This document shows, piece by piece, positions 11,268-22,263 of a stretch of DNA of 41,025 nt (within the stretch, counting starts at the first letter, position 1; every line of letters begins with the position of its first letter). The DNA lies in NCBI GenBank assembly GCA_003577095.1, contig QEUR01000004.1, forward strand, positions 1 to 41,025, read 5' to 3'. The stretch comes from Acidobacteriota bacterium. Its GTDB lineage: Bacteria > Actinomycetota > Actinomycetes > Actinomycetales > Dermatophilaceae. The notes below the pieces were generated by a model. It was not told where the DNA came from, did not search any database, and saw only the letters and a program-made list of their open reading frames with translations. The translations under genes were made by a program, and so were the position numbers.

Positions 11268-12115
11268 GCACGACATCACCGAGCGGCTCGGCCCGGGGCG
11301 GGTCCACCGCGGACTCGGGCCTGCGGGCGCTCATCGTGACGATCTACGGGCTCTACGCGCGCGAGGTCGGCGGCTGGCTGAGCGTCAGCGCGCTGATCCG
11401 GCTGATGGCCGAGCTCGGCGTGGACGAGCCCGCGGTGCGCTCCTCGATCTCCCGGCTCAAGCGGAGGGGCATCCTGGAGGCCGAGCGGGTCGACGGGCGG
11501 GCCGGCTACGCCCTGTCCGCGCACGCGCGCGAGATCCTCGAGGCCGGCGACCGGCGGATCTTCCGGCGCCGCCGCGGCACGCTCGACGAGGGGTGGGTGC
11601 TGGCGGTCTTCAGCGTGCCGGAGTCCGAGCGGCGCCGCCGGCACACCCTGCGCTCGCGGCTGTCCTGGCTGGGCTTCGGGTCTGTCGGGCCGGGGGTGTG
11701 GATCGCCCCGGCGCACCTGACGGAGGAGGCGCGCGACGTGCTGGTCCGCGAGGAGCTGGCCGAGTACGTCGACCTCTTCGAGGGCCGCTACCTCGGCTTC
11801 GCCGCCGCGCCCGAGCAGGTCGCGCGGTGGTGGGACCTGGAGGGCCTGGACGCGCTCTACGAGCAGTTCTGCTCCGACTTCGAGCCGGTGCTCGCCCGCT
11901 GGCGGGCCGCCCGGGGCAAGGACGAGACGGGTATGGCGTTCGCCGACTACGTGCGCGTCCTCACCTCGTGGCGGCGCCTGCCCTACCTCGACCCCGGGCT
12001 GGCCCCCGAGCTGCTGCCCCGAGACTGGTCGGGCACCAAGGCGGCCGACCTGTTCTTCGCGCTGCAGCGGCGGCTGGAGGAGCCCTCGCACCGGTTCGTC
12101 ACCGAGGTGCGCTGA
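11252..12115 (+). CDS. PaaX-family transcriptional regulator (start uncertain)
   Basis: LIVTIYGLY, AVRSSISRLKRRG wHTH, FSVPE..R..RH.LR..L.WLGFG, WDL, DPGLAPELLP.DW.G. Confidence 0.92.
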   Translation: MTTVKSTTSPSGSARGGSTADSGLRALIVTIYGLYAREVGGWLSVSALIRLMAELGVDEPAVRSSISRLKRRGILEAERVDGRAGYALSAHAREILEAGDRRIFRRRRGTLDEGWVLAVFSVPESERRRRHTLRSRLSWLGFGSVGPGVWIAPAHLTEEARDVLVREELAEYVDLFEGRYLGFAAAPEQVARWWDLEGLDALYEQFCSDFEPVLARWRAARGKDETGMAFADYVRVLTSWRRLPYLDPGLAPELLPRDWSGTKAADLFFALQRRLEEPSHRFVTEVR

Positions 12116-12572
12116 CCTCCGCGGGTGCGGAGCAGCAACCCGTCTCCACGGACCGGGCGCCGTCCAGCGGCGAGAGGTCGGCGCCGCTGCGGCCCTCCAG
12201 CTCCGGGTGGGCGTCGGCGAGCACGACGTAGTTCTCCCACCGCTGGCCGTCGGGACCGGTCACCCAGTGCTTGTCCTGGCGGGCATAGCAGCACACGACG
12301 TCATCCTCGACGTCCAGGGACAGGCCGGCCGCCTCGAGCCGGTCCGCCTCGGCCTGGACCTCCTCCATCGAGACGCGCTCGACGCCGAGGTGGTTGAGGG
12401 TGCCGGTGGCCTCGGGGTTCTCGAAGAGCACGAGCTTCAGGGGTGGGTTCTCGACCGCGAAGTTGGCGTAGCCGGGCCGCTGCTTGGCCGGAGGGGTGTC
12501 GAAGAGCGTCGAGTAGAACCGGACGGCCGCCTCGATGTCGTCGACGTTGAGGGCGAGCTGGATGCGCGACAT
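12099..12572 (-). CDS. arsI: ArsI/CadI-family VOC metalloenzyme (putative C-As lyase)
   Basis: SRIQLALNV, PGYANFAV..PPLKLVL, LNHLG, CCYARQDKHWV..PDG..WE.Y, C-terminal CC; divergent from arsR. Confidence 0.85.
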   Translation of the reverse strand: MSRIQLALNVDDIEAAVRFYSTLFDTPPAKQRPGYANFAVENPPLKLVLFENPEATGTLNHLGVERVSMEEVQAEADRLEAAGLSLDVEDDVVCCYARQDKHWVTGPDGQRWENYVVLADAHPELEGRSGADLSPLDGARSVETGCCSAPAEVSAPR

Positions 12573-12594
12573 GCGGACTCCTTGCTAGATGATC

Positions 12595-12656
12595 CATCGA
12601 CTGGTGTCGATGCGTTGGCAGGTCCAGACTCTACTCACGTATTGACGCATGTCAAT
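12595..12656. promoter_or_regulatory. Two ArsR/SmtB-type operator palindromes in the arsI-arsR divergent promoter
   Basis: CATCGAC-tggt-GTCGATG (12595-12612) and ATTGAC-gcat-GTCAAT (12641-12656); the second overlaps a TTGACG -35, with CACAAT -10 at 12664. Confidence 0.7.
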
Positions 12657-12701
12657 GCTTTGGCACAATGGACTTGTGATCCCGACCCGAAGGAGGCCGT
12701 C

Positions 12702-13055
12702 GTGGCCCTGAGAGAGCTGCCGCTGGCGCAGCTGCTGGCGGACGAGTGCTGCACGCCGCTGATGCTGGAGCCACTGTCGGAGCCGGACGCCGCGGTCCTG
12801 TCCGAGCGGTTCGCGGCGCTGGGCGACCCGGTCCGGCTCCGCCTGGTGTCGCTGCTGGCGACCGCCGAGGCCGGCGCGGTGTGCGTCTGCGACCTGACCG
12901 GGCCGGTCGACCGGTCGCAGGGCACCGTCAGCCACCACCTGAAGGTGCTGTCGAAGGCCGGGCTCGTCGTCAGCGAGAAGCGTGGCCGGAACATGTGGTA
13001 CTCGGTCGTCCCCGCCGCGCTGGAGTCGCTCCGCGCCGCGCTCGTCGCCGGATGA
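12702..13055 (+). CDS. arsR: ArsR/SmtB-family metalloregulator
   Basis: GTG after AGGAGG; N-terminal CC, ALGDPVRLRL, CVCDL, SQGTVSHHLKVL. Confidence 0.9.
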   Translation: MALRELPLAQLLADECCTPLMLEPLSEPDAAVLSERFAALGDPVRLRLVSLLATAEAGAVCVCDLTGPVDRSQGTVSHHLKVLSKAGLVVSEKRGRNMWYSVVPAALESLRAALVAG

Positions 13056-13531
13056 CCCCGGCGAGATCCTTATTGACCAGGCCGACCGTCCTGTTCGTCT
13101 GCGTGCACAACGCCGGCCGTTCGCTGATGGCGGCCGCCTACCTCCAGCACCTCGCCGGTGATCGCGTCGAGGTGCTCTCGGCAGGGTCGGAGCCCGCTCA
13201 CCGCGTCAACCCGGTGGCCGTCTCCGCCATGGCCGAGGAGAGCATCGACATCACCGCCGGGCAGCCGAGGCTGCTGACCGACTCGGCGGTCAGGGAGGCC
13301 GACGTGGTCATCACCATGGGCTGCGGCGACACCTGCCCGGTCTACCCGGGCAAGAGGTACGAGGGCTGGGATCTCGACGACCCGGCTGGTCAGGGCATCG
13401 AGGCGGTGCGCCCCATCCGCGACGAGATCCGCGCCCGCGTCCAACGGCTCATCGATGAGCTCATCCCGCAGGCCGGACCTGCCGGAGGAAATCACTCCGC
13501 CCCGCTCCTTGCGAGCAGGTCCGATGGCTAG
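13052..13531 (+). CDS. arsC: Arsenate reductase, LMW-PTP fold
   Basis: VLFVCVHNAGRS, ITMGCGDTCP, WDLDDPAGQ, RPIRDEI; ATGA overlap with arsR; about 20-aa atypical C-terminal extension. Confidence 0.9.
   Translation: MTPARSLLTRPTVLFVCVHNAGRSLMAAAYLQHLAGDRVEVLSAGSEPAHRVNPVAVSAMAEESIDITAGQPRLLTDSAVREADVVITMGCGDTCPVYPGKRYEGWDLDDPAGQGIEAVRPIRDEIRARVQRLIDELIPQAGPAGGNHSAPLLASRSDG
13473..13527. repeat. Imperfect inverted repeat carrying the GCA-N5-GG/GA motif on both arms (candidate recombination site)
   Basis: CGGACCTGC (13474-13482) and GCAGGTCCG (13515-13523) form a perfect 9-bp IR with an inner CGGAG/CTCCG stem; abuts the stop of the 13528-13929 gene. Confidence 0.45.
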
Positions 13532-13929
13532 ACGGCTCGGGCGGTGAGCTGGCGGCGTTCCACCTTTCGGAGGATGAACGCGGAGATCAGACCGAGGGTG
13601 AGGGCCCAGGCCGGATATCCGAAGACAAAGAGGCCAAGCGACCCCTCCGGTGTCGGCCACAGGCCGAGAAACACAGCGCCGAGAAGAAGAATGCAGAGGA
13701 CTGGAGCTGCTGCCACGGTCAGCAGCGCACCGGAGTACCCCCAACGTCGAACACCTGCCCACCACAGCAGTGCCACTAGCGCTGACATGACAACAAGGAG
13801 CCCCATGTGCACATAATCGCGGGCCGCGAACTCCGAGACCGCCAGGGGTAGGCAGAATGGGGCGGCCATCAAGGTGAAGAAGACAAGCGCCCCGGTGCCA
13901 CGGGCCTTGGCTGTCGCGCTGTCGTTCAT
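13528..13929 (-). CDS. Hypothetical membrane protein (about 4 TM)
   Basis: Four hydrophobic stretches, GGAGG upstream of ATG. Confidence 0.7.
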   Translation of the reverse strand: MNDSATAKARGTGALVFFTLMAAPFCLPLAVSEFAARDYVHMGLLVVMSALVALLWWAGVRRWGYSGALLTVAAAPVLCILLLGAVFLGLWPTPEGSLGLFVFGYPAWALTLGLISAFILRKVERRQLTARAV

Positions 13930-14026
13930 GTGCCGCCTCCGACGGAGCAGTTCAGTCGTCGCACTCGCGTCGATCCGGATCGAAGGGATGCTACACCTGA
14001 GGGATGGGGCAGGCCGGGCGCCCGGC

Positions 14027-14042
14027 GCGGCAATACAGGATG
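14027..14042 (+). repeat. Intergenic motif copy GCGGCA-ATACA-GG-ATG
   Basis: 7 bp from the hicB stop; same spacing as copies at 15678 and 16009. Confidence 0.5.
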
Positions 14043-14049
14043 TGTCAGC

Positions 14050-14394
14050 TCAGGATGCGTCGCCGAGTTTGCGGACGACGTACTGGTTGAGGCTGAGGTG
14101 TTCTTCGGCTGCCTTGATCGCGAGTTGGCGGTGGAGTCGTGCGCCGACGCGGAGGTTGAACTTGCCCGAGTAGGCCCGTGAGGACAATGGCTCGGGGATC
14201 GGCTCGCTGCTGCGGTGCAGGTCCTCGACGACGTCGTGCACCAGATCGCGCAGGCCGTGCAAGGCCTCGTCCTGTGTGCCGGCGAGCCAGGACAGGGAGG
14301 GCAGCTCGAGGCAGGTGGCGACGAACTCCTCGTCCTCGGGAGACCAGCTGACGCGGTAGGTGTAGTGCGAGACGTCGGGCATCGTGGTGCTCAC
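14050..14394 (-). CDS. hicB: HicB-family antitoxin
   Basis: HYTYRVSWSPEDEEFVATCLELPSLSW, PEP, YSGKFNLRV...HRQLA..A.....SLNQYV (RHH); GTGA overlap with hicA. Confidence 0.9.
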   Translation of the reverse strand: MSTTMPDVSHYTYRVSWSPEDEEFVATCLELPSLSWLAGTQDEALHGLRDLVHDVVEDLHRSSEPIPEPLSSRAYSGKFNLRVGARLHRQLAIKAAEEHLSLNQYVVRKLGDAS

Positions 14395-14639
14395 TGGGCT
14401 GCCTCCTTCTTCTCGATCGCTGCCAGGACCTGGCGGACCTGGTACGGCTTGGCCTTGCCGTGGTCGTTCTGGATATTCACTCGCGGGTCGCCGGGCCACG
14501 GGGTCTTGAACACGGCGTGCGAGCCGCCGCTGGTCCTGGGTGGGCCGAAGTTGTGCTCGCACACCTTGGCGAGATCCTCGTACCGGATGTTGCTCGGGTT
14601 GGCTCGCATCTGAGCCAGGATCTTGGCAACGGACGGCAC
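14391..14639 (-). CDS. hicA: HicA-family toxin (mRNA interferase)
   Basis: NIRYEDL, GGSH catalytic His, PRVNIQ, AKPYQVRQV; directly upstream of hicB. Confidence 0.88.
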   Translation of the reverse strand: MPSVAKILAQMRANPSNIRYEDLAKVCEHNFGPPRTSGGSHAVFKTPWPGDPRVNIQNDHGKAKPYQVRQVLAAIEKKEAAQ

Positions 14640-14648
14640 GCCTACAAC

Positions 14649-14666
14649 GGTACTATCCGCAGTACC
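14649..14666. promoter_or_regulatory. Putative HicB operator
   Basis: GGTACT-atccgc-AGTACC inverted repeat about 10 bp upstream of the hicA start. Confidence 0.6.
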
Positions 14667-14725
14667 ACGACGCAACGGTGTCCGGTTCACCCCAACCCTC
14701 GTCGCGGCAGCTCCGCTCGCCTTCC

Positions 14726-15655
14726 TCAGGTGCCGGAGGCCATGTAGGCAGCCAGGATGTAGTTGGGGTGACGGTCGAGGTTCTTGCGCGCCCGGTCGTA
14801 GCGCATGGTGGTGCGGGGGTCGGCGTGCCGGGCGGCGATCTGGACGTCGCGCAGGTCCACACCGGCATCGAGCATGGTGGTGACGAACGTGTGCCGGAGC
14901 ATGTGCGGATGCATCCGCGGCAGATTGATGCCGGCGTCGTCGGCAAGGTGGTGCAGGCGCCGGGTCGCGGCGTGCCGGTCCATCCGACCGCCCTGCCGGT
15001 TCCGCAGGATCGGGCCGTCCTCACGGCGGTCGACGGCGCGTTCGATCGCGCGCTGAACCGCTGGCGGCAGCGGTGTCAGGACGACCTTGCCGCCCTTGCC
15101 GCGGACCTTCAGCACCCGGTGACCGTGCTCCTCGCGCAGGTCCTGGATGTTCGCGCCGCACGCCTCGAAGATGCGCAGGCCGAGTAGGCCAAGCATGGCG
15201 ACGAGGGCGAAGTCGTTGATGTTGCCGCTGGCCCGGCCGGCCTGGAGCATCGCCTCGAACTGCAGGTGGGACAGGCCCAGGGTGGGTGATTCCGGCGGTA
15301 CGTGCGGCCGCCGGACGTGATCGGCAGGTGAGGTGGGCAGCACACCGTCGATGACGGCCGTGGCGTAGAACCCGATGACGACGGACAGCCGCCGCGAGAT
15401 CGTGGACGGCTTGTACCGACGGGTCTCCTGCATCCACCGCACGTACAGCTCGACGTGTACCCGGTGGGCGGTCAGCGGGTCCAGTCCGCGTTCGCGGCAC
15501 CAGTTCAGGAAGGCGCGCAGATCGGACTCGGTATGAGTGCGGGTCTGCCCGGTGTAGCGGGCCAGGTGAGCGGCGATCGCCTGGCGTAACGCGGCACCGG
15601 CCGCGCTGCCAGTCGATACCGGAACGAGGGCGGAGGTGATCTGAGAGTTGTTCAT
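14726..15655 (-). CDS. Tyrosine recombinase/integrase (about 309 aa, Xer-like size)
   Basis: SAM-like N-domain; catalytic R (GLRIFE), K (GKGGK), HxxR (HMLRH), H (ARHAD) and Y (TTMRYD) all intact; ATG at 15655. Confidence 0.93.
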   Translation of the reverse strand: MNNSQITSALVPVSTGSAAGAALRQAIAAHLARYTGQTRTHTESDLRAFLNWCRERGLDPLTAHRVHVELYVRWMQETRRYKPSTISRRLSVVIGFYATAVIDGVLPTSPADHVRRPHVPPESPTLGLSHLQFEAMLQAGRASGNINDFALVAMLGLLGLRIFEACGANIQDLREEHGHRVLKVRGKGGKVVLTPLPPAVQRAIERAVDRREDGPILRNRQGGRMDRHAATRRLHHLADDAGINLPRMHPHMLRHTFVTTMLDAGVDLRDVQIAARHADPRTTMRYDRARKNLDRHPNYILAAYMASGT

Positions 15656-15677
15656 AGACCATCGTGACTCGCGACCA

Positions 15678-15694
15678 GCGGCAAAGTCGGATGG
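15678..15694 (+). repeat. Direct repeat A1 GCGGCAAAGTCGGATGG (candidate recombination site)
   Basis: 15/17 identical to 16009-16025. Confidence 0.7.
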
Positions 15695-15705
15695 GTACGG
15701 AATGC

Positions 15706-15990
15706 TCAGTCGCGTTCGTCTCGGACGTCTGCGAGGTCGGAGACCTCCCACCGCAGGATGGCGATGGCTCGGTCCGTCTCAGCGTGCCACCGGTGACGGT
15801 TCTCGGGTGCATCCCACTGCCCCTCAAGGTTGCGGTGGGCCTTCCAGTACGCGTAACAGGACTGCAATCGCTCCGTGAGTTCTGGTGACAATCCGTAGTC
15901 GGCGGGTTCCATGGCGTACTTGTCGGTGCCGTCCTCCCACAGCGGCCACACGTGTCCGTAGTCGAACATGAACCGGACCACTCGAGCCAT
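15706..15990 (-). CDS. Hypothetical 94-aa protein
   Basis: Protein-like composition (MFDYGHVWPLWE...YGLSPEL), GAGG upstream, bracketed by direct repeats A1/A2. Confidence 0.7.
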   Translation of the reverse strand: MARVVRFMFDYGHVWPLWEDGTDKYAMEPADYGLSPELTERLQSCYAYWKAHRNLEGQWDAPENRHRWHAETDRAIAILRWEVSDLADVRDERD

Positions 15991-16008
15991 GCCTCATCTT
16001 TACGCACG

Positions 16009-16025
16009 GTGGCAGAGTCGGATGG
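16009..16025 (+). repeat. Direct repeat A2 GTGGCAGAGTCGGATGG
   Basis: 15/17 identical to 15678-15694. Confidence 0.7.
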
Positions 16026-16083
16026 AGCCGGTGAGTGCTCCACTGCGTCCGAATCCAGACGCCCCCGAACGAGAGGCCGATCT

Positions 16084-16644
16084 ATGAGGTGTGATCGAGC
16101 TTTCCGTGCCCTCCGGTTGGCTGGCGCGCTCGCGCTGTTGACCGGCTGCAATTCGACGCAGTCGGCAGACACCCCCCCGGCCAGTGAGACAATCTCGGAT
16201 GTGCGGGGGGCGACATCCAGCGGTAGCCCCGCCGCCGACTTCACGATGCGGGTGTTCCCGCCCGGTGAGGCCTGGGACGAAGCCGTGCAGCCCTTGATCG
16301 TGAGGGTTAGCAATCAAGCCTTCGACGACCCGGATGTGCAACTCAGCGCGAACCTGGACGGGGTGATCCTCTTCGATCAAACATTCAAGGTCGAGGACCA
16401 GCACACCGTCACCCTGTTCGGCGTGAACGTCGCGCCGGGGTCCCACACCCTCACCGTGCTCTCCGACACTGGTGCCAAGGTAGAGCAGCCTTTCGACCTG
16501 ACCGCGGGCAAGCAGCGGTGGGTGGTAGTCAACTACTGGTACTTCGACCCCAACCCGACGGCACAGCGCCAACGCGGGCAGGAAGAGGAACCTGGTCCAT
16601 CCCTCCACGTCTCCATTTCTGATCAGCCGGTCTACATCGGCTGA
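16084..16644 (+). CDS. Putative lipoprotein with beta-rich domain
   Basis: ATG after GAGAGG; signal peptide with lipobox LLTG-C; Ser/Thr/Pro linker followed by a beta-strand pattern. Confidence 0.7.
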   Translation: MRCDRAFRALRLAGALALLTGCNSTQSADTPPASETISDVRGATSSGSPAADFTMRVFPPGEAWDEAVQPLIVRVSNQAFDDPDVQLSANLDGVILFDQTFKVEDQHTVTLFGVNVAPGSHTLTVLSDTGAKVEQPFDLTAGKQRWVVVNYWYFDPNPTAQRQRGQEEEPGPSLHVSISDQPVYIG

Positions 16645-16685
16645 TCAGAAACAGCACGGTTTCAACAGTGCACCCGTGCGCTCCA

Positions 16686-16705
16686 CGCGGCAGATCCGGT
16701 AAGCG
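16686..16705 (+). repeat. Direct repeat B1 CGCGGCAGATCCGGTAAGCG
   Basis: 18/20 identical to 20359-20378; core sits in the loop of a GCTCCACGC/GCGCGGAGC hairpin. Confidence 0.7.
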
Positions 16706-16780
16706 CGGAGCGGGCGGGCAAGACCGGTCCGATTGGCCTCCCCTAGTCCGCGATCTTGGGGGTCGCTGCTTGTTTCTGGT

Positions 16781-18133
16781 TCAGAGCATGGAGCCCAGGT
16801 CTGATCCGACGGTGGGGTAGGCGGCGGTCATCGATTTCAGCCGGCGGGTGGTGAGTCCCAGCTTCATGGCGAGGGCGAGGGTGTTGACGAGTTCGGCGTA
16901 CTCGGGGCCGAGGAGGTGGGCTCCCACGATGGTGTCGTTGGAGCGGTCGATGAGGATCTTGGTCGCGGCGGTCGTCTCTCCGATCCGGTAGTTGGAGTAC
17001 CAGCTGCTGGTGTCGGAGTAGCGAACGTCGATGTCGATGCCCCGGGCGAGGGCCTCTTCCTCGAGCAGGCCCACCCGGGTGAGTTCGGGGATCGTGAACA
17101 CCGCGGTGGGCACGCCGGTGTAGTCCGGGGCGGTCGTGGTGCCCTTGAGCATGTTCGACGCGGCGACCTTGCCCTCGAACACGGCGACCGGGGTCAGCGG
17201 CATGCCGGGGGTGCGGGCCGCGTCGCCGGCGGCGTAGACCGCCGGGTTGCTGGTGCTCTGCAGGTGGGCTGCTACGCGGACCCCGTCCTCGTCCCACTGG
17301 ACGCCGGCGGCGTCCAGGTCCAGGATCGTCAGCTCGGGGGTCCGGCCTGCGCCGTGGACGACCAGGTCGAACTCGGCTGTCCTTGACCGCCCTGATTCAT
17401 CCACGCTCACCTGATAGCCGGTGGCGGTCTTCTCCACCGCAGTGAGCGTCGCAGAGCGCCAGGTCTCGATCCCGACCTGGGTGCCGCGGTCGATGAGGAG
17501 GTCGACGAGATCGGGGTCGAAGGCCTTCAGCGGTCGAGGTTTACGGTCCAGGATGACCGGGGTGCTGCCGGCCCGGGCGGCGATGTGGGCGAACTCGAAG
17601 GAGATGAAGCCCCCGCCGACGAACAGGATCCGTCGCGACAGCTCGGGCACGTCCAGGAAGCCGGTGCTGTCTACCAGGTGCTCGTGCCCGGGCAGGTCCA
17701 GCGGGCGGGGGCGCGCACCGGTGGCGATGAGGAAGTGTCGGCCGGTGTAGGGGGCGTCGTCGATGGCCACGGTGTTGGGACCGGTGAACCGCGCGGTACC
17801 GTGCAGGGTGGTGACCCCGTTGCCTGACAACCCGGCCTCGACCTGCTCGGGGACGGGGTCGGTGAAGCCGTGCTTGTGCGCCATGAGGTCGGCCCAGTTG
17901 ATCGACAGGCCGTCGTCGTCGATGCCCTTGCCGCGCATCAGGCGGGCGCTGTCGATGACCTCGGCACCGCGGCGCAGAATCTTCTTGGGGTCGCACCCGC
18001 GCAGGGCACACGTGCCGCCGTAGGGCAGGGCGTCAACGATCGCGACCTTCCACCCCGCGGAGGCACACTTGTTCGCCGCCGTGACGCCGGCCATGCCGGC
18101 ACCGATGACGATCAGGTCGTAGTCGCAGGTCAT
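16781..18133 (-). CDS. Flavin disulfide reductase (glutathione/mercuric reductase-like class I pyridine nucleotide-disulfide oxidoreductase)
   Basis: GAGMAG, redox motif GGTCALRGC, GGGFI, YAAGD, AVFTIPE, C-terminal YPT; no C-terminal CC. Confidence 0.9.
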   Translation of the reverse strand: MTCDYDLIVIGAGMAGVTAANKCASAGWKVAIVDALPYGGTCALRGCDPKKILRRGAEVIDSARLMRGKGIDDDGLSINWADLMAHKHGFTDPVPEQVEAGLSGNGVTTLHGTARFTGPNTVAIDDAPYTGRHFLIATGARPRPLDLPGHEHLVDSTGFLDVPELSRRILFVGGGFISFEFAHIAARAGSTPVILDRKPRPLKAFDPDLVDLLIDRGTQVGIETWRSATLTAVEKTATGYQVSVDESGRSRTAEFDLVVHGAGRTPELTILDLDAAGVQWDEDGVRVAAHLQSTSNPAVYAAGDAARTPGMPLTPVAVFEGKVAASNMLKGTTTAPDYTGVPTAVFTIPELTRVGLLEEEALARGIDIDVRYSDTSSWYSNYRIGETTAATKILIDRSNDTIVGAHLLGPEYAELVNTLALAMKLGLTTRRLKSMTAAYPTVGSDLGSML

Positions 18134-18444
18134 CGCGTGGCCTCCTGGGCCAGCCCCAGCGCTGCGTACAGCTGTTCCAGGGTCGGTGCCCCAGCCAGGC
18201 CGTCCGCCGTGTGGTAGACCCGGCACGACAGGCCCCCTGCTGAGTCTGGGGCGGAGAACGCGTCGGTACCGTCGACCAGCACTGTGGGTGAGCCGCGAAA
18301 GCCCACCTGTTCGGCCTGCTCCCGGGTCTCGACGCACTGACGCCGGATCCTGACTTCCGGGTGCTCGGCCGCGATCGCGACCAACCTGCGGTCAGCCACC
18401 TTCCAGTTGGGGCAGTCCTCGAAGTACAGCAGGCAGACGTCCAT
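18130..18444 (-). CDS. Small thioredoxin-like protein of the type found in actinobacterial mer loci
   Basis: LLYFEDCPNW, GFRGSPTVLVDG, SCRVY; ATGA overlap with the reductase. Confidence 0.8.
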   Translation of the reverse strand: MDVCLLYFEDCPNWKVADRRLVAIAAEHPEVRIRRQCVETREQAEQVGFRGSPTVLVDGTDAFSAPDSAGGLSCRVYHTADGLAGAPTLEQLYAALGLAQEATR

Positions 18445-18451
18445 ACCCGCG

Positions 18452-18483
18452 ACGCTAGACCTTGTACCCTGGTACAAGCTCAA
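18452..18483 (-). promoter_or_regulatory. MerR-type promoter/operator
   Basis: -35 TTGAGC (18483-18478), -10 TAGCGT (18457-18452), elongated 20-bp spacer holding the dyad CTTGTACC-ct-GGTACAAG; spacing puts +1 at the ATG (leaderless). Confidence 0.8.
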
Positions 18484-18507
18484 GCGTGAGAGGTAGGACA
18501 GGGCGAA

Positions 18508-18909
18508 ATGCGGATCGGAGAGCTGGCCGAGTCGGCCGAAGTGAGCAGTCAAACCATCCGCTTCTACGAGCGCCAGGGTCTGCTGGCCGAGCCCGCGCGC
18601 GGGGCGAACGGCTACCGCGTCTATGACGAGTCCGCAGCCACACGGCTGCGCTTCATCGCCATGGCGCAGGCCGCCGGGCTCACGCTGTCCCAGATCCGCA
18701 GCATCCTGGACCTGCGTGACCAAGGGACCACCCCCTGCCAGCACGTCACCACGCTCCTGGACACCAGACTCGCTGACGTCCGGACACGGATCCGCGACCT
18801 CCTCACGCTGCAGGCAGAACTCGAGGTGCTGCTGCAGCGCAGCCAACTGTTGGACCCCGGCGACTGCGCAGACCAGGACATCTGCCACATCCTGTCCCCG
18901 TCGCAGTAG
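18508..18909 (+). CDS. MerR-family heavy-metal-responsive regulator
   Basis: MRIGELA, TIRFYERQGLL, NGYRVY; three Cys (PC, DC, ICH). Confidence 0.92.
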   Translation: MRIGELAESAEVSSQTIRFYERQGLLAEPARGANGYRVYDESAATRLRFIAMAQAAGLTLSQIRSILDLRDQGTTPCQHVTTLLDTRLADVRTRIRDLLTLQAELEVLLQRSQLLDPGDCADQDICHILSPSQ

Positions 18910-19199
18910 CCTTCGCCCAGGCACGACCCGGACCCCGACCTCGCGCGCCAGCCATAACACGCCGGAACAAGGCCGGCTGTCCGGTCCGCCCACCGCAGCA
19001 CCGACACGACCGACGGCATGATCGCGGCAGAGTCCGACGCCTCGAAGACCGCCGGCGCCGCCCCCGGCCGCAGGAGGCTGCGCGAAAGGGGTCCGAGCCC
19101 GGTCCGAACTCCCGTCCCGTGGTTCGACTGACGATCCGTCACACGACACGATCGAGCTGACCTCTGGAAGTCCGTCACTTTGCGGGGCAGACTATCGTC

Positions 19200-20318
19200 A
19201 TGAAAGCCGCCGCCAGGGAGCTGCACCGAAAGTCGCTCGCGTCGATGCGTTCGGCCATGACCTCGTTCAATAGCCCGCACGACGACGGCCGGGCAACGGC
19301 GGTCCTACTGCACCTGCAGCACGCCTTTGAGATGATGTTGAAGGCCGTGCTTGTGCAGGGCGGGAAGAACGTGTTCGATAAGGACACGGGGCGATCCATT
19401 GGGTTTGACAAGGCCGTAGCACTGTCTCAGCAGCTCCCAGGGGTCAAGGTCACGGAACCCGAGGCTGGGACCCTCCGGGCGATCGACGCGTTGCGGGATG
19501 ACGAGCAGCATTGGTATACCGAGGTTCCCGAAGGGCTCCTCTATTTGCACGCTCGGGCGGCGGTCACGCTCTTTGACGACCTGCTGTACCGGGGCTTCAA
19601 GCAACGGCTTGCGGACCACCTGCCGGTACGCGTCCTGCCCATTTCGACAGAGATTCCTCAAGATTTTCAGAGCTTGGTGGACAGCGAGTACGCAGAAATC
19701 GCCAAGTTGCTTAAACCCGGCCGTCGGCGCAGGGACACGGCGCGTGCCCGGATCCGTGCTCTCCTAGCCATGGAAGCGCACACCGGGGCCGACGCCAAGG
19801 TCAGCAACTCGGACGTCAACCGGGTGGAGAAGGGTGTCAAGGCCGGCAAGTCGCGTAGTGAACTCCTGCCCAATCTCTCAAGCGTAGGAGCCGACATCAC
19901 TGGTGAGGGCTTGACTGTACAGGTGCGCTTCTCGAAGACTGAGGGAATGCCGGTGCGGTATGCCAGTGACAACGAGGAAGCAGCCGCCATCCAAAAAGTC
20001 GATCTGCAGGCCAAGTACCACTGGTCACCCTCCACGCTCGCAAAGAAGCTCAAAATCGACACAACGCGTGCGAAGTTGTTGCGCGAGCACCTTGGCATCG
20101 ATAGCAACGCAGACGACTCTCATGAGTTCAAGTTCAATCGGACGAAACATCGTGGCTTCTCTGACAACGCCCTCAAGAAGATGCGCGAGGCGCTTGTCCA
20201 GGTCGACATGGACGCCCTTGTTGAGTCACACAGCAAGGTCAAGCGTCGGAAGCCTCGGCCTCCCTGCACGCAGCCGGGCTGCGTGCTCGTGCCAAAGGGC
20301 AGCGAGGCGGCTTCGTAG
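19200..20318 (+). CDS. DUF3644-like protein with N-terminal HEPN-type motif; candidate defence/toxin ribonuclease
   Basis: Helical N-domain with AFEMMLKA (ExxxK) and RDDEQH (RxxxxH); atypical low-GC codons. Confidence 0.65.
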   Translation: MKAAARELHRKSLASMRSAMTSFNSPHDDGRATAVLLHLQHAFEMMLKAVLVQGGKNVFDKDTGRSIGFDKAVALSQQLPGVKVTEPEAGTLRAIDALRDDEQHWYTEVPEGLLYLHARAAVTLFDDLLYRGFKQRLADHLPVRVLPISTEIPQDFQSLVDSEYAEIAKLLKPGRRRRDTARARIRALLAMEAHTGADAKVSNSDVNRVEKGVKAGKSRSELLPNLSSVGADITGEGLTVQVRFSKTEGMPVRYASDNEEAAAIQKVDLQAKYHWSPSTLAKKLKIDTTRAKLLREHLGIDSNADDSHEFKFNRTKHRGFSDNALKKMREALVQVDMDALVESHSKVKRRKPRPPCTQPGCVLVPKGSEAAS

Positions 20319-20358
20319 TTGCGGGTTCGTCGAGCCAGCACGCGTGCTGCGCGCGAGG

Positions 20359-20378
20359 CGCGGCAAATCCGGTAAACG
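20359..20378 (+). repeat. Direct repeat B2 CGCGGCAAATCCGGTAAACG
   Basis: 18/20 identical to 16686-16705; flanked by a GCGAGG/CCTCGC IR and preceded by the palindrome CAGCACGCGTGCTG. Confidence 0.7.
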
Positions 20379-20615
20379 GCTCCTCGCTGGTGTTGGGCTG
20401 GTCCGGGTGGCGGTGGAGCCACGTGCGGGAGCCTCTGCGGTGCGATGGTCTGCTCGATCGTGGCCATGCTGATCGCCATGGCCTTTGGTCGAGATTCTGA
20501 GATCGGTGGGGTGTATCGTCACGTCACCCTGGGCGGCTGGGCACTCGGACGGAGGACTGTCGTGCTCCTCCGGCCACCACCACTGGGTCGATAGTGGGTC
20601 ACCGATGGGGGAGCC

Positions 20616-21374
20616 ATGCACACGGATCGAGAACGCACCTCGTTGCTGCCAGTCTGCGCCCTCGTGCTGCTGGCCGTCGTCGGTTGCACGGAACCTGACA
20701 GGGGCGACAGCAGCAGTAGTGAAACTGCCGCTACGAGCCCATCATCATCTCCCTCAGCAGCGGACTCCGGTTCTGCCACCTCTGCGCCGAGCGGAATGCA
20801 GGAGCCTGGCGCGTCAATGTCGGATGACGACATACGCGATGCCGTCGAATCTAACGACCCAACACGACCACAGACGTTCCAGGAGACCCTCGACCCATAC
20901 TGGCGCTCGTTGAACCTCGACGGAGATCCGCCTGAGGTCCTCCCCGTGAGAAGCGTCACCCTGGCCGAAGCGAACGACGTGCACTTCGAGTGCATGGCTG
21001 AGCAGGGGTTTCCCTCTGTGACCGATCAGCACGGCCAACAGGCCATCGAGTTCTCGAAGGATCAAGCCGAGGCCATGAAGTTGTCCCAGTACGTCTGCTA
21101 CGCCCGGTACCCCCTGGAGGACAAGTACTTCGAGCCCTACTCCGTGGACCAGCTGCGCGCCATCTATGACTGGAACAGGACCGAGGTGACGCAGTGTCTT
21201 CGAGACCAAGGCGTGGAGGCATCATCGCCACCGAGTTTCGAGACGTTTGTAGAACGTTACGCGCTGACCGGACGGGAGCACTGGACGGCGACCGAAGGCC
21301 TTGATCTGATGACCTTGGAGGAGTTGTGCCCAGAGACGCCCCCCGATGACCGTCTCTACGGAGCCGGGGACTAG
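20616..21374 (+). CDS. Putative lipoprotein with duplicated Cys-containing helical module
   Basis: Lipobox VVG-C, Ser-rich linker, ECMAEQGF...C and QCLRDQGV...C. Confidence 0.75.
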   Translation: MHTDRERTSLLPVCALVLLAVVGCTEPDRGDSSSSETAATSPSSSPSAADSGSATSAPSGMQEPGASMSDDDIRDAVESNDPTRPQTFQETLDPYWRSLNLDGDPPEVLPVRSVTLAEANDVHFECMAEQGFPSVTDQHGQQAIEFSKDQAEAMKLSQYVCYARYPLEDKYFEPYSVDQLRAIYDWNRTEVTQCLRDQGVEASSPPSFETFVERYALTGREHWTATEGLDLMTLEELCPETPPDDRLYGAGD

Positions 21375-21470
21375 GCCACCAAGTCTGCTAGCCGGGTTCG
21401 TGCGCTGCGAGGCAGGGCTGGAAGGGTGAGCACCGCCGCCATCTAGTACGCCCGCGCGCCTTCGCAACCA

Positions 21471-21492
21471 TCCGCTCATCGGCGTGAGCGGA
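21471..21492. terminator. Hairpin between convergent genes
   Basis: TCCGCTCA-tcggcg-TGAGCGGA. Confidence 0.45.
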
Positions 21493-21537
21493 CTGTCACG
21501 AACCACGCAACAACCGGGCGCCCGGGATCGCGCATCC

Positions 21538-22263
21538 TCAGATCCCGAGCAGCTCCTCGGCTCTCTCGCGGTTCCTCCGGAACTCCCCCACCGACGCATC
21601 CCACCGCACCGAGCCCTTCTGCATGACCACCACGCGGTCGGCCACGGACAGCGCCAGGCGCAGGTTCTGCTCCACGAGGAGCACCGACATTCCGGCGCCG
21701 CAGACCTCGCGCACAACGTCCGCCACCTGGTGCACCACCGAGGGCGCCAACCCGTCGGACGGCTCGTCTAGGAGCAGGATCGTCGGGTTGGTCAGCAGCG
21801 CCCGGGCTATGGCGAGCATCTGCTGCTCGCCCCCGGAGAGCTCGTCGCCGCGGTGTCGCATCCGCTCCCCCAGCCGGGGCAGCAGCTCGACGACCCGGTC
21901 GCGGGTCCAGTCGCCCTTCCTCCCGGCGCGGTCGGCGATCTCGAGGTGCTCGGCCACGGTCAGGGGTGCGAAGACGCGTCGCCCCTGCGGCACCAGCCCG
22001 ACCCCCAGCTTGGCGATCCGGTCGGGCCGGGAGCCGGCCACCTCGCGCCCGGCCACGGTCACCGAACCGGCCATCGGTCGCACCAGCCCCATGATCGTGC
22101 TGACCAGCGTCGACTTGCCGACGCCGTTCCGGCCAAGCACCGCCAGGACCCCGCCCTCGGGCAGCTCGACGTCCACCTCGTGCAGCACCCGCGAGCCGGC
22201 ATAGCCCGACACGAGCCCACGCGTCGCCAGGATCGGGGCCGCCGCCACGTCGTCGCTCGTCAC
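21538..22263 (-). CDS. LIV-type ABC ATP-binding subunit (LivF-like)
   Basis: GRNGVGKS, LSGGEQQM, LLDEPS, VEQN. Confidence 0.93.
   Translation of the reverse strand: MTSDDVAAAPILATRGLVSGYAGSRVLHEVDVELPEGGVLAVLGRNGVGKSTLVSTIMGLVRPMAGSVTVAGREVAGSRPDRIAKLGVGLVPQGRRVFAPLTVAEHLEIADRAGRKGDWTRDRVVELLPRLGERMRHRGDELSGGEQQMLAIARALLTNPTILLLDEPSDGLAPSVVHQVADVVREVCGAGMSVLLVEQNLRLALSVADRVVVMQKGSVRWDASVGEFRRNRERAEELLGI

Follow-up and report, generated by a model that had tools for sequence, protein, structure and literature searches.

A polar array of gene cassettes with a 26-bp recombination site in an actinobacterial genome, and the Xer-like recombinase that probably serves it

The subject of this study is an island at positions 13528-21504 of the window, by which we mean the whole 41,025-nucleotide contig QEUR01000004.1 (contig C53 in our numbering) of assembly GCA_003577095.1, whose 3.06 Mb have 73.5% GC and are 85% complete. 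The island is a real and polar array of gene cassettes, and it belongs to a system, widespread among actinobacteria, that has a defined recombination site. Crossover takes place at the core of this site, polarity is fixed, cassettes change neighbours and are duplicated in tandem, and one terminal site has a different core. Our reading as a whole, that the cassettes are bounded by 26-bp sites of one direction and exchanged at their 6-bp cores, with the Xer-like tyrosine recombinase encoded in the array as the likely actor, is probable. For its parts taken separately, sequence comparison makes the cassette nature of the array nearly certain, and that this enzyme acts here, by this chemistry, is likely. 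An earlier note on this DNA, made from the letters alone, had seen here nine same-strand copies of a 13-bp word, GCGGCA-N5-GG, which cut the DNA into unrelated cargo units, and had proposed a separate cassette system with short sites. It had named three tests in advance, and all three now support the proposal: the site is enriched over the genome background, it recurs with fixed polarity near homologous recombinases, and the homology breakpoints of cassettes map to it.

How can it be told that a cassette ends at such a short word? Loci around the best 80 of at least 547 confirmed homologues of the recombinase were fetched, additional stretches were taken from genomes of the same genus, and the island was compared by BLAST with the fetched loci and with contigs from public metagenome runs; runs X19-X24, with almost none of the words, were left out. 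Some DNA is present twice, under different identifiers, and kin are not independent, so that fewer events took place than the counts below suggest. All nine words exist in the sequence as the note had read them, and seven of them (14027, 14704, 15678, 16009, 16687, 19024 and 20360) are cassette borders, because homology starts or stops at their cores in other genomes or contigs. Those at 14704 and 19024, which had been called weak, are among the seven. Contig pieces from the public runs begin or end at 14032, 16687, 20360, 20365 and 21484; the cassette with the candidate anti-phage gene, which starts at 19024, has different right neighbours in runs X1 and X12, and a contig of X12 joins 19022 to 20359, which is the array without this cassette, the short side of the joint being just 23 nt. 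The word at 21409 is no border: it has a matrix score of 8.4 and lies inside a unit, 20360-21484, which is 99.2% identical in two genomes (G071 and G002) and matched over the same length in loci L145 and L146. Thus the array does not end at 21409, as had been supposed, and its actual right end is a terminal site with the core at 21479, which had been missed. The word at 13512 has no CGGC core and scores -15.5, or -10.3 with a shift of one base.

The 13-bp word holds a real core, and the full site is longer: 26 bp, CGYSC-N5-GCGGCA-N5-GKRYG, with two inverted 10-bp arms and an asymmetric 6-bp core between them. Two inverted arms and an asymmetric overlap are the layout of a simple tyrosine-recombinase site. 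Among 92 distinct breakpoint sites, for which the core was required by construction, the mirror positions -10/+15, -9/+14 and -6/+11 are conserved. When all loci were compared against all, of 334 homology ends, 89 were no more than 15 bp away from a core, against 4.0% of random places, and the reverse-complement control gave nine; starts of homology fell at offset 0 in 41 of 135 cases, and ends at +5 in 42 of 158. The switch is sharp to the base. In 82 pairs of sites with the same right and different left units the mismatch is 0.65 at position -1 and just 0.06 at core position 0; in 71 pairs with the same left and different right units it is 0.17 at position 5 and 0.65 at +6 (the central CGGC is required by construction, and the pairs are not independent). 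Identity thus switches at both edges of the core, so each site is a hybrid whose arms come from two adjacent cassettes.

As the note had cautioned, GCGGCA alone is common, with 5358 matches in the genome, or 0.87 per kb and strand. The stricter motif G[CT]GGCA[AG]A..CGG[AT] has only six matches in the 3.06 Mb, four of them between island genes. A first matrix was trained on 142 breakpoint sites from other genomes with the window excluded; its training set includes homologues of the window's cassettes, so that it is not fully independent of the window. It places the seven top plus-strand scores of the window, and the three top scores of the genome, in the island, where six sites reach at least 12 bits against 0.14 expected. 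A second matrix, trained on Ornithinimicrobium/Serinicoccus-type loci only, was tested on 74 other loci, whose titles include Micromonospora, Actinoplanes, Terrabacter, Nocardioides, Kribbella, Nocardia and others. It found 377 matches on one strand versus 64 on the opposite one, two or more sites in 64 of the 74 loci, and a peak of site density beside the recombinase. Strong sites avoid genes: eight of 528 lie inside called genes, which cover 53% of the sequence (the genes were called with a simple gene caller, and tandem copies inflate the 528). The packing described earlier fits in most cases. For minus-strand genes, the proposed 0-11 bp between motif and stop was measured as 3, 10, 9, 15 and 81 bp in five genes, and for plus-strand genes the proposed 35-42 bp from stop to motif as 42, 114, 41 and 34 bp, the last being 104 bp when taken to the true site.

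The arrays of relatives behave in the same manner. The stretch from one site to the next has a median length of 807 bp. Among 302 clusters of cassettes, 15 recur, their neighbours changing and their orientation never reversed, and none of 80 links between homologous cassettes is inverted. The genes within cassettes lie both ways (89 minus, 56 plus). Units of 20-39 bp without any gene are frequent and amplified in tandem, 14 in L037 and 37 in L183. Runs of such mini-cassettes (27-39 bp; L183:7662-8920 with 37 units of 34 bp, L037:194-636 with 14, and others in L186, L134 and L003) look like a CRISPR or satellite array and are in fact arm-core-arm units. In L105 a two-cassette block is tandemly doubled (c14-c13-c14-c13), and two recombinase cassettes lie 8 kb apart. 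Clusters of up to 15 opposite-strand sites occur in L044, L050, L047, L057, L067, L007 and L064, possibly as second, oppositely oriented arrays. The sites are also a target of insertion: in array-centred loci, all of the 12 distinct left junctions found place an IS110 element within the core. This IS110-family element, about 1.43 kb long, in one orientation and with the right arm intact, was seen in L103, L104, L001, L102, L116, L109, L057, L035 and L071, and further copies in those genomes may mark other arrays. The cargo was scanned for 149 of 217 cluster representatives and the IS110 protein, a few host genes being included through wrongly called segments; 55 of these 150 proteins have no Pfam family and 18 are of toxin-antitoxin types, and Mrr, TIR, APH, GNAT, beta-lactamase-family and glyoxalase proteins are also found.

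The recombinase has 309 aa, an N-terminal SAM-like domain and a catalytic domain (Pfam PF02899 and PF00589), and the catalytic motifs GLR, RGKG, HMLRH, RHAD and MRYD are all present. It scores far below the XerC, XerD and IntI cut-offs (for TIGR02249, 58.6 bits versus a cut-off of 265). It is collinear with XerD (1a0p) across the catalytic domain, and IntI4 matches residues 228-289 only; profile scores and alignment agree with the note that the IntI insertion is missing. Other matches in PDB are XerA and the Gp33 chain of 5vfz, which we take to be the Brujita integrase. The closest named homologues among the matches listed, from Ornithinimicrobium and Serinicoccus, are 91-93% identical. Relatives with E 1e-40 or better are found in 19 of 36 genomes of the genus and in 0 of 24 others of the order, and an even draw of 400 genomes of the phylum (five candidates scored per genome) gave 10 matches, all 38-49% identical; the family is therefore patchy. 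A plasmid search gave one record at 43.6%, and viral contigs hold no close relative, with matches of 22-33% only. The units had been described as arranged around this gene. It is in fact no fixed platform gene and is itself a cassette, recurring in 15 loci with changing neighbours, and alone or fused to the hicAB cassette it is the commonest cassette of all; hicAB mostly travels in this fused form. Two other tyrosine-recombinase matches in the host genome, about 30% identical, are probably host XerC and XerD. There is also a sister recombinase with 42% identity; in seven of 12 loci, related sites with the core TGGGCG flank its gene. The sister was seen in L133:7957-8880, L134, L168 and L170-L177, with bounding cores TGGGCG and GCGGCG, and often lies about 100-200 bp from a terminal-type site.

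Each array has a special end. At the terminal site of the window homology ends at 21484, and host DNA is back within about 35 bp; a relaxed search of the genome matches this site alone, which is 5.8 kb away from the recombinase, differs from the internal sites in its core and can fold as a long hairpin. Ten arrays of the same genus were mapped, nine of which are rows of GCGGCA sites with a T-core site as their right end (of the extended type in seven), and one has a second T-core site on the left. Of adjacent site pairs, 125 of 134 are GCGGCA-GCGGCA. The terminal pattern occurs in 33 of 59 other genomes of the genus, in up to eight copies, and the reversed control gave 0; around it, 16 sites were counted upstream in 44 kb versus two downstream in 46 kb. 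Downstream there are host genes (alanine dehydrogenase, a topoisomerase subunit) or, in eight of 30 loci, a shared flank, which encodes a TrwC relaxase in L145. The distance from the topoisomerase stop varies between genomes, which suggests independent arrivals. By hand count the pattern is present in 13 of 15 genus genomes with a close recombinase homologue and in two of four with the sister only. The extension was considered as the arm in a further junction, and the bases at the core expected for it show just a weak preference (T 21/37, G 23/37, C 22/37). In a family of mobilizable elements the terminal site adjoins the 3' end of the TrwC relaxase gene, with differing cassettes upstream (L145:3438-7256, L199, L202, L204, L208, L212, L214, L216 and L217). 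Positions 21476-21486 of the window match the reverse of the XerC arm of host dif at nine of 11 positions; derivation of the whole site from dif was considered and rejected, as it resembles this arm and not the entire dif.

How might such an array move? The local recombinase would bind both arms on double-stranded DNA and require matching cores, so that any two GCGGCA sites could recombine. Within one molecule, a circle may be cut out that is able to enter any other GCGGCA site; between molecules, such as sister chromosomes or a chromosome and a mobilizable element, cassettes would be deleted, duplicated or transferred. Because the sites are in direct orientation, excision and integration are expected, but no inversion. 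A unit of 20-39 bp is too short to bend into a circle, and thus the spread of such units and their runs in tandem suggest crossovers between molecules; by this route cargo, too, would move with no need of a free circle, as has been proposed for dif modules. The last cassette starts and ends with unlike cores and so cannot leave by one crossover of matching cores; since it changed both neighbours, two separate crossovers are needed. The terminal TCGGCR site might perhaps be an anchor that ties arrays either to the host's DNA or to TrwC-relaxase elements, which would carry them between cells, and it may be read by the local recombinase or by its 42%-identical sister.

Several observations weigh against this reading. 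Core position 0 differs in five of the 82 pairs and the window itself has a GTGGCA core, and thus core identity is not absolute. The 64 opposite-strand matches are concentrated in few loci, 15 of them in L044. The orientation of the recombinase is fixed relative to the sites, as expected of any passenger cassette, and L145 carries an array with no recombinase on its contig. No circular junction was found in two comparisons with metagenome contigs, which drop rare forms and so give no evidence of absence; no filled and empty pair within one species was found between paaX and the ABC ATPase gene, where the island lies, or at two further loci. Finally, by hand count, the terminal pattern is present in nine of 17 genus genomes without a recombinase match. 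Could the sites then be real and most of the work be done in trans, by the sister or another mobile-element recombinase, the local enzyme being a passenger or serving some cores only? The nine genomes are what one would expect of such an enzyme, terminal-type sites lie about 100-200 bp from the stop of the sister gene in L133, L134, L173, L175 and L176, and sister cores end in GGCG as the terminal core does. However, the sister is absent from the window's assembly, 85% complete as it is, where other matches are only about 30% identical; in L168, where the sister has two genes, 20 kb contain no site of the GCGGCA type; and of the 74 loci chosen by the local family, 64 carry two or more sites. 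We consider action in trans unlikely.

Another known system invites comparison, the dif modules of Acinetobacter, in which short two-armed sites (pdif) with a 6-bp spacer lie between modules and serve XerC/XerD. Here, too, exchange occurs at identical 6-bp spacers, as identity switches at the edges of shared cores, and movement through cointegrates is plausible; PMC13141974 describes, for dif modules, exchange between identical or near-identical spacers and a cargo of toxin-antitoxin and metal-resistance genes. One may ask, therefore, whether this is an actinobacterial dif-module system, with host XerC and XerD recombining the sites and the local recombinase as cargo. The same design of the 6-bp spacer and a cargo akin to that described in PMC13141974, arrays without a local enzyme, and the likeness of the terminal site to the host XerC arm speak for it. 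Host dif was found once, on contig C323, but the eight window sites match its arms at 8-11 of 22 positions, which is the background range, and in relatives the XerC-arm match is partly due to selection on TCGGCG. Moreover, all sites of the window are on one strand and direct, whereas pdif sites alternate, and the units here never invert and have their own recombinase in the array. The arrays are found in Actinomycetota, mostly on the chromosome or on TrwC-relaxase elements, and dif modules are described as occurring in Acinetobacter only. That host XerC and XerD are the actors is very unlikely.

The likeness to integrons, and to CALIN arrays, is of another kind: fixed-polarity arrays of one- or two-gene cassettes, independently mobile, stand beside a tyrosine recombinase, with toxin-antitoxin, defence-like, resistance-like and orphan cargo, and arrays without the enzyme occur. 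Targeting by an IS110-family element is a further parallel, as IS1111 elements target attC sites in integrons. attC sites carry the boxes RYYYAAC/GTTRRRY and recombine as a folded single strand. Could this be a divergent integron, with folded single-stranded sites and the terminal site as an attI at which cassettes are added in order? There is a single special site at one end of each array, it is able to fold as a long hairpin, and the cargo is rich in toxin-antitoxin genes and orphans. Against this, the arms of each site come from different cassettes and give no common fold (no common hairpin was found among the seven internal sites of the window), internal sites change neighbours just as well, and the terminal core is unlike that of most cassettes. 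A box-pattern search found four attC box pairs in 8.2 kb, all in the region of the last open reading frame (ORF) and none at any border, in agreement with the earlier note. There is no IntI match either; according to PMC8138268, an IntI-specific insertion in the catalytic domain is a feature of integron integrases. The system differs further in its 26-bp site made by two cassettes, in exchange at a 6-bp core, in genes of both directions and in an enzyme that is itself a cassette within the array. We regard a divergent integron as most improbable. In integrons a Pc promoter drives promoterless cassettes of one orientation; a search for sigma-70 consensus sequences, a weak test in this host, gave no match in the island. 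That a frequent GC-rich word is matched here by chance, in an ordinary island of unrelated insertions, would agree with the frequency of GCGGCA and with the two listed copies that are not confirmed as borders (21409 and 13512), but enrichment, strand bias, gene avoidance and base-exact breakpoints have already refuted this.

In its working the system thus resembles both integrons and dif modules, and it belongs to neither class. Simple tyrosine recombinases, such as Brujita-type phage integrases and Xer-related enzymes, share the two-domain form without an arm-binding domain; here, however, many sites serve many independent units, and not one attL/attR pair. The island is no prophage or single integrative element: it has eight sites and independently moving units, and no phage or transfer genes were found among the scanned ORFs. 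PMC3025954 and bioRxiv 10.1101/2022.12.17.520857 were further sources of comparison. A literature search found no description of such a system, most subscription journals being outside its scope, so that novelty is not proven. PMC9024848 reports the actinobacterial phylum to be without complete integrons, for reasons stated as unclear. An unrelated cassette system of Actinomycetota would fill this gap and make that question testable. As the site is short and searchable, arrays can serve as sources from which small adaptive genes are mined, and a compact recombinase that acts on a 26-bp site through channels set by the core would be a candidate genetic tool for GC-rich hosts. It is tempting, though tentative, to suppose that Actinomycetota own integron-independent gene-capture arrays, in which self-mobile Xer-like recombinases act on short double-stranded sites through parallel channels set by the cores, GCGGCA for cargo and TCGGCR or TGGGCG for anchors and sister enzymes. 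Cargo would be shuffled within the array, whole arrays would swap between chromosomes and relaxase elements through exchange between unlike cores, and tandem mini-cassettes would be spare landing sites.

Table 1. Cassettes and sites of the island, in window coordinates.
Feature	Position	Strand	Core or genes	Evidence
Membrane-protein orphan, probable cassette	13528..14026	-	ORF 13528-13929, 133 aa	Right border is the 14027 site
Site 1	14017..14042	+	GCGGCA 14027-14032	Homology starts at offsets -2 to 0, several loci; 15.9 bits
Toxin-antitoxin cassette, 677 bp	14027..14703	-	hicB 14050-14382; 82-aa ORF 14391-14639	Pfam HicB
Site 2	14694..14719	+	GCGGCA 14704-14709	Homology starts exactly at 14704 in two genomes (L082/L102, L084/L109); 13.6 bits
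Recombinase cassette, 974 bp	14704..15677	-	Gene 14726..15655, Xer-like tyrosine recombinase, 309 aa	
Site 3	15668..15693	+	GCGGCA 15678-15683	22.0 bits, top score of genome; homology starts at 15677 in L002
94-aa orphan cassette, 331 bp	15678..16008	-	ORF 15706-15990	330-331-bp unit with other neighbours in L002, L019, L150, L151
Site 4	15999..16024	+	Variant GTGGCA 16009-16014	Homology ends at 16014 (L002, L151), starts at 16008 (L145)
Lipoprotein-like cassette, 678 bp	16009..16686	+	ORF 16084-16644, 186 aa	81% identical unit 16008-16698 in L145
Site 5	16677..16702	+	GCGGCA 16687-16692	Homology starts at 16687 in L002, L148, contigs of X1 and X12
Reductase cassette, 2337 bp	16687..19023	both	Flavoprotein disulphide reductase 16781-18133 (-); 104-aa CxxC ORF 18130-18444 (-); MerR-family regulator 18508-18909 (+)	95-96% identical unit 16682/16687-19030/19031 in three genomes; genes by Pfam, NCBIfam
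Site 6	19014..19039	+	GCGGCA 19024-19029	Homology ends at 19030-19031 (19030 in L002)
DUF3644 cassette, 1336 bp	19024..20359	+	ORF 19200-20318, 372 aa; candidate anti-phage gene PDC-S19	Pfam DUF3644
Site 7	20350..20375	+	GCGGCA 20360-20365	Contigs of five runs end or begin here; L145, L146 start at 20360
Last cassette, 1119 bp	20360..21478	+	ORF 20616-21374, 252 aa, lipoprotein-like	GCGGCA core at start, TCGGCG core at end
Terminal site	21469..21504	+	TCGGCG at 21479	CATCC GCTCA TCGGCG TGAGC GGACT plus conserved extension GTCACGAAC

Some of the cassette contents need comment. The membrane orphan has no Pfam family, and no homologue of it or of the left border was found in JGI metagenomes, 150 genomes of the family (arsC matched only) or 400 genomes of the order; one metagenome contig matches 13631-14032 and then continues with other sequence. 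In the unit that had been called hicAB, hicB stands by Pfam, and the 82-aa ORF upstream has no Pfam or PADLOC match, so that hicA is named by position only. The 186-aa ORF has no Pfam family, its lipoprotein label coming from an LTGC motif in the sequence only. A MerA label for the reductase was rejected (score 261.8, below the cut-off of 454). The 372-aa DUF3644 protein is PDC-S19 by PADLOC with E 1.6e-153.

The island has 65.6% GC, versus 72-73% in its flanks, and together with an ars gene group it is placed between paaX and the ABC ATPase gene. These two genes are close neighbours in seven relatives (G003, G068, G014, G006, G078, G071 and G023) and 1-31 kb apart in four others (G061, G012, G069 and G033). 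Short and filled intervals were compared for an exact empty target, and the intergenic DNA was too diverged for alignment. The ars group (12099-13531: glyoxalase-like, arsR, arsC) separates paaX from the array; the stop of the glyoxalase gene overlaps with the end of paaX, and the arsC tail is extended, which suggests junctions at both ends of the group. No tRNA was found in the window, no Rfam family within 12000-22000, and a generic repeat finder did not pick up the cassette sites. The array of G061 begins with GCGGCA at the same end of paaX.

In the metagenome runs, the reductase, PDC-S19 and last cassettes (16687-21484) are 99-100% identical, with other neighbours, in contigs of X1, X2, X5, X6 and X12, whose sources are food, bovine, terrestrial and plastisphere. 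The contig depth of the last cassette is several-fold above that of its neighbour in X2, X5 and X6. A joint in X8 that goes back from 15689 to 14026 was considered as a circle and rejected; it has 12 matching bases only, and a mini-cassette before hicAB accounts for it better. The same chromosomal intervals are occupied by unrelated arrays in different species and are thus recurrent hotspots, for example one gene cluster, presumably of carotenoid type, in L221 and L261, and the 3' end of a topoisomerase gene in L223, L242, L243 and L245.

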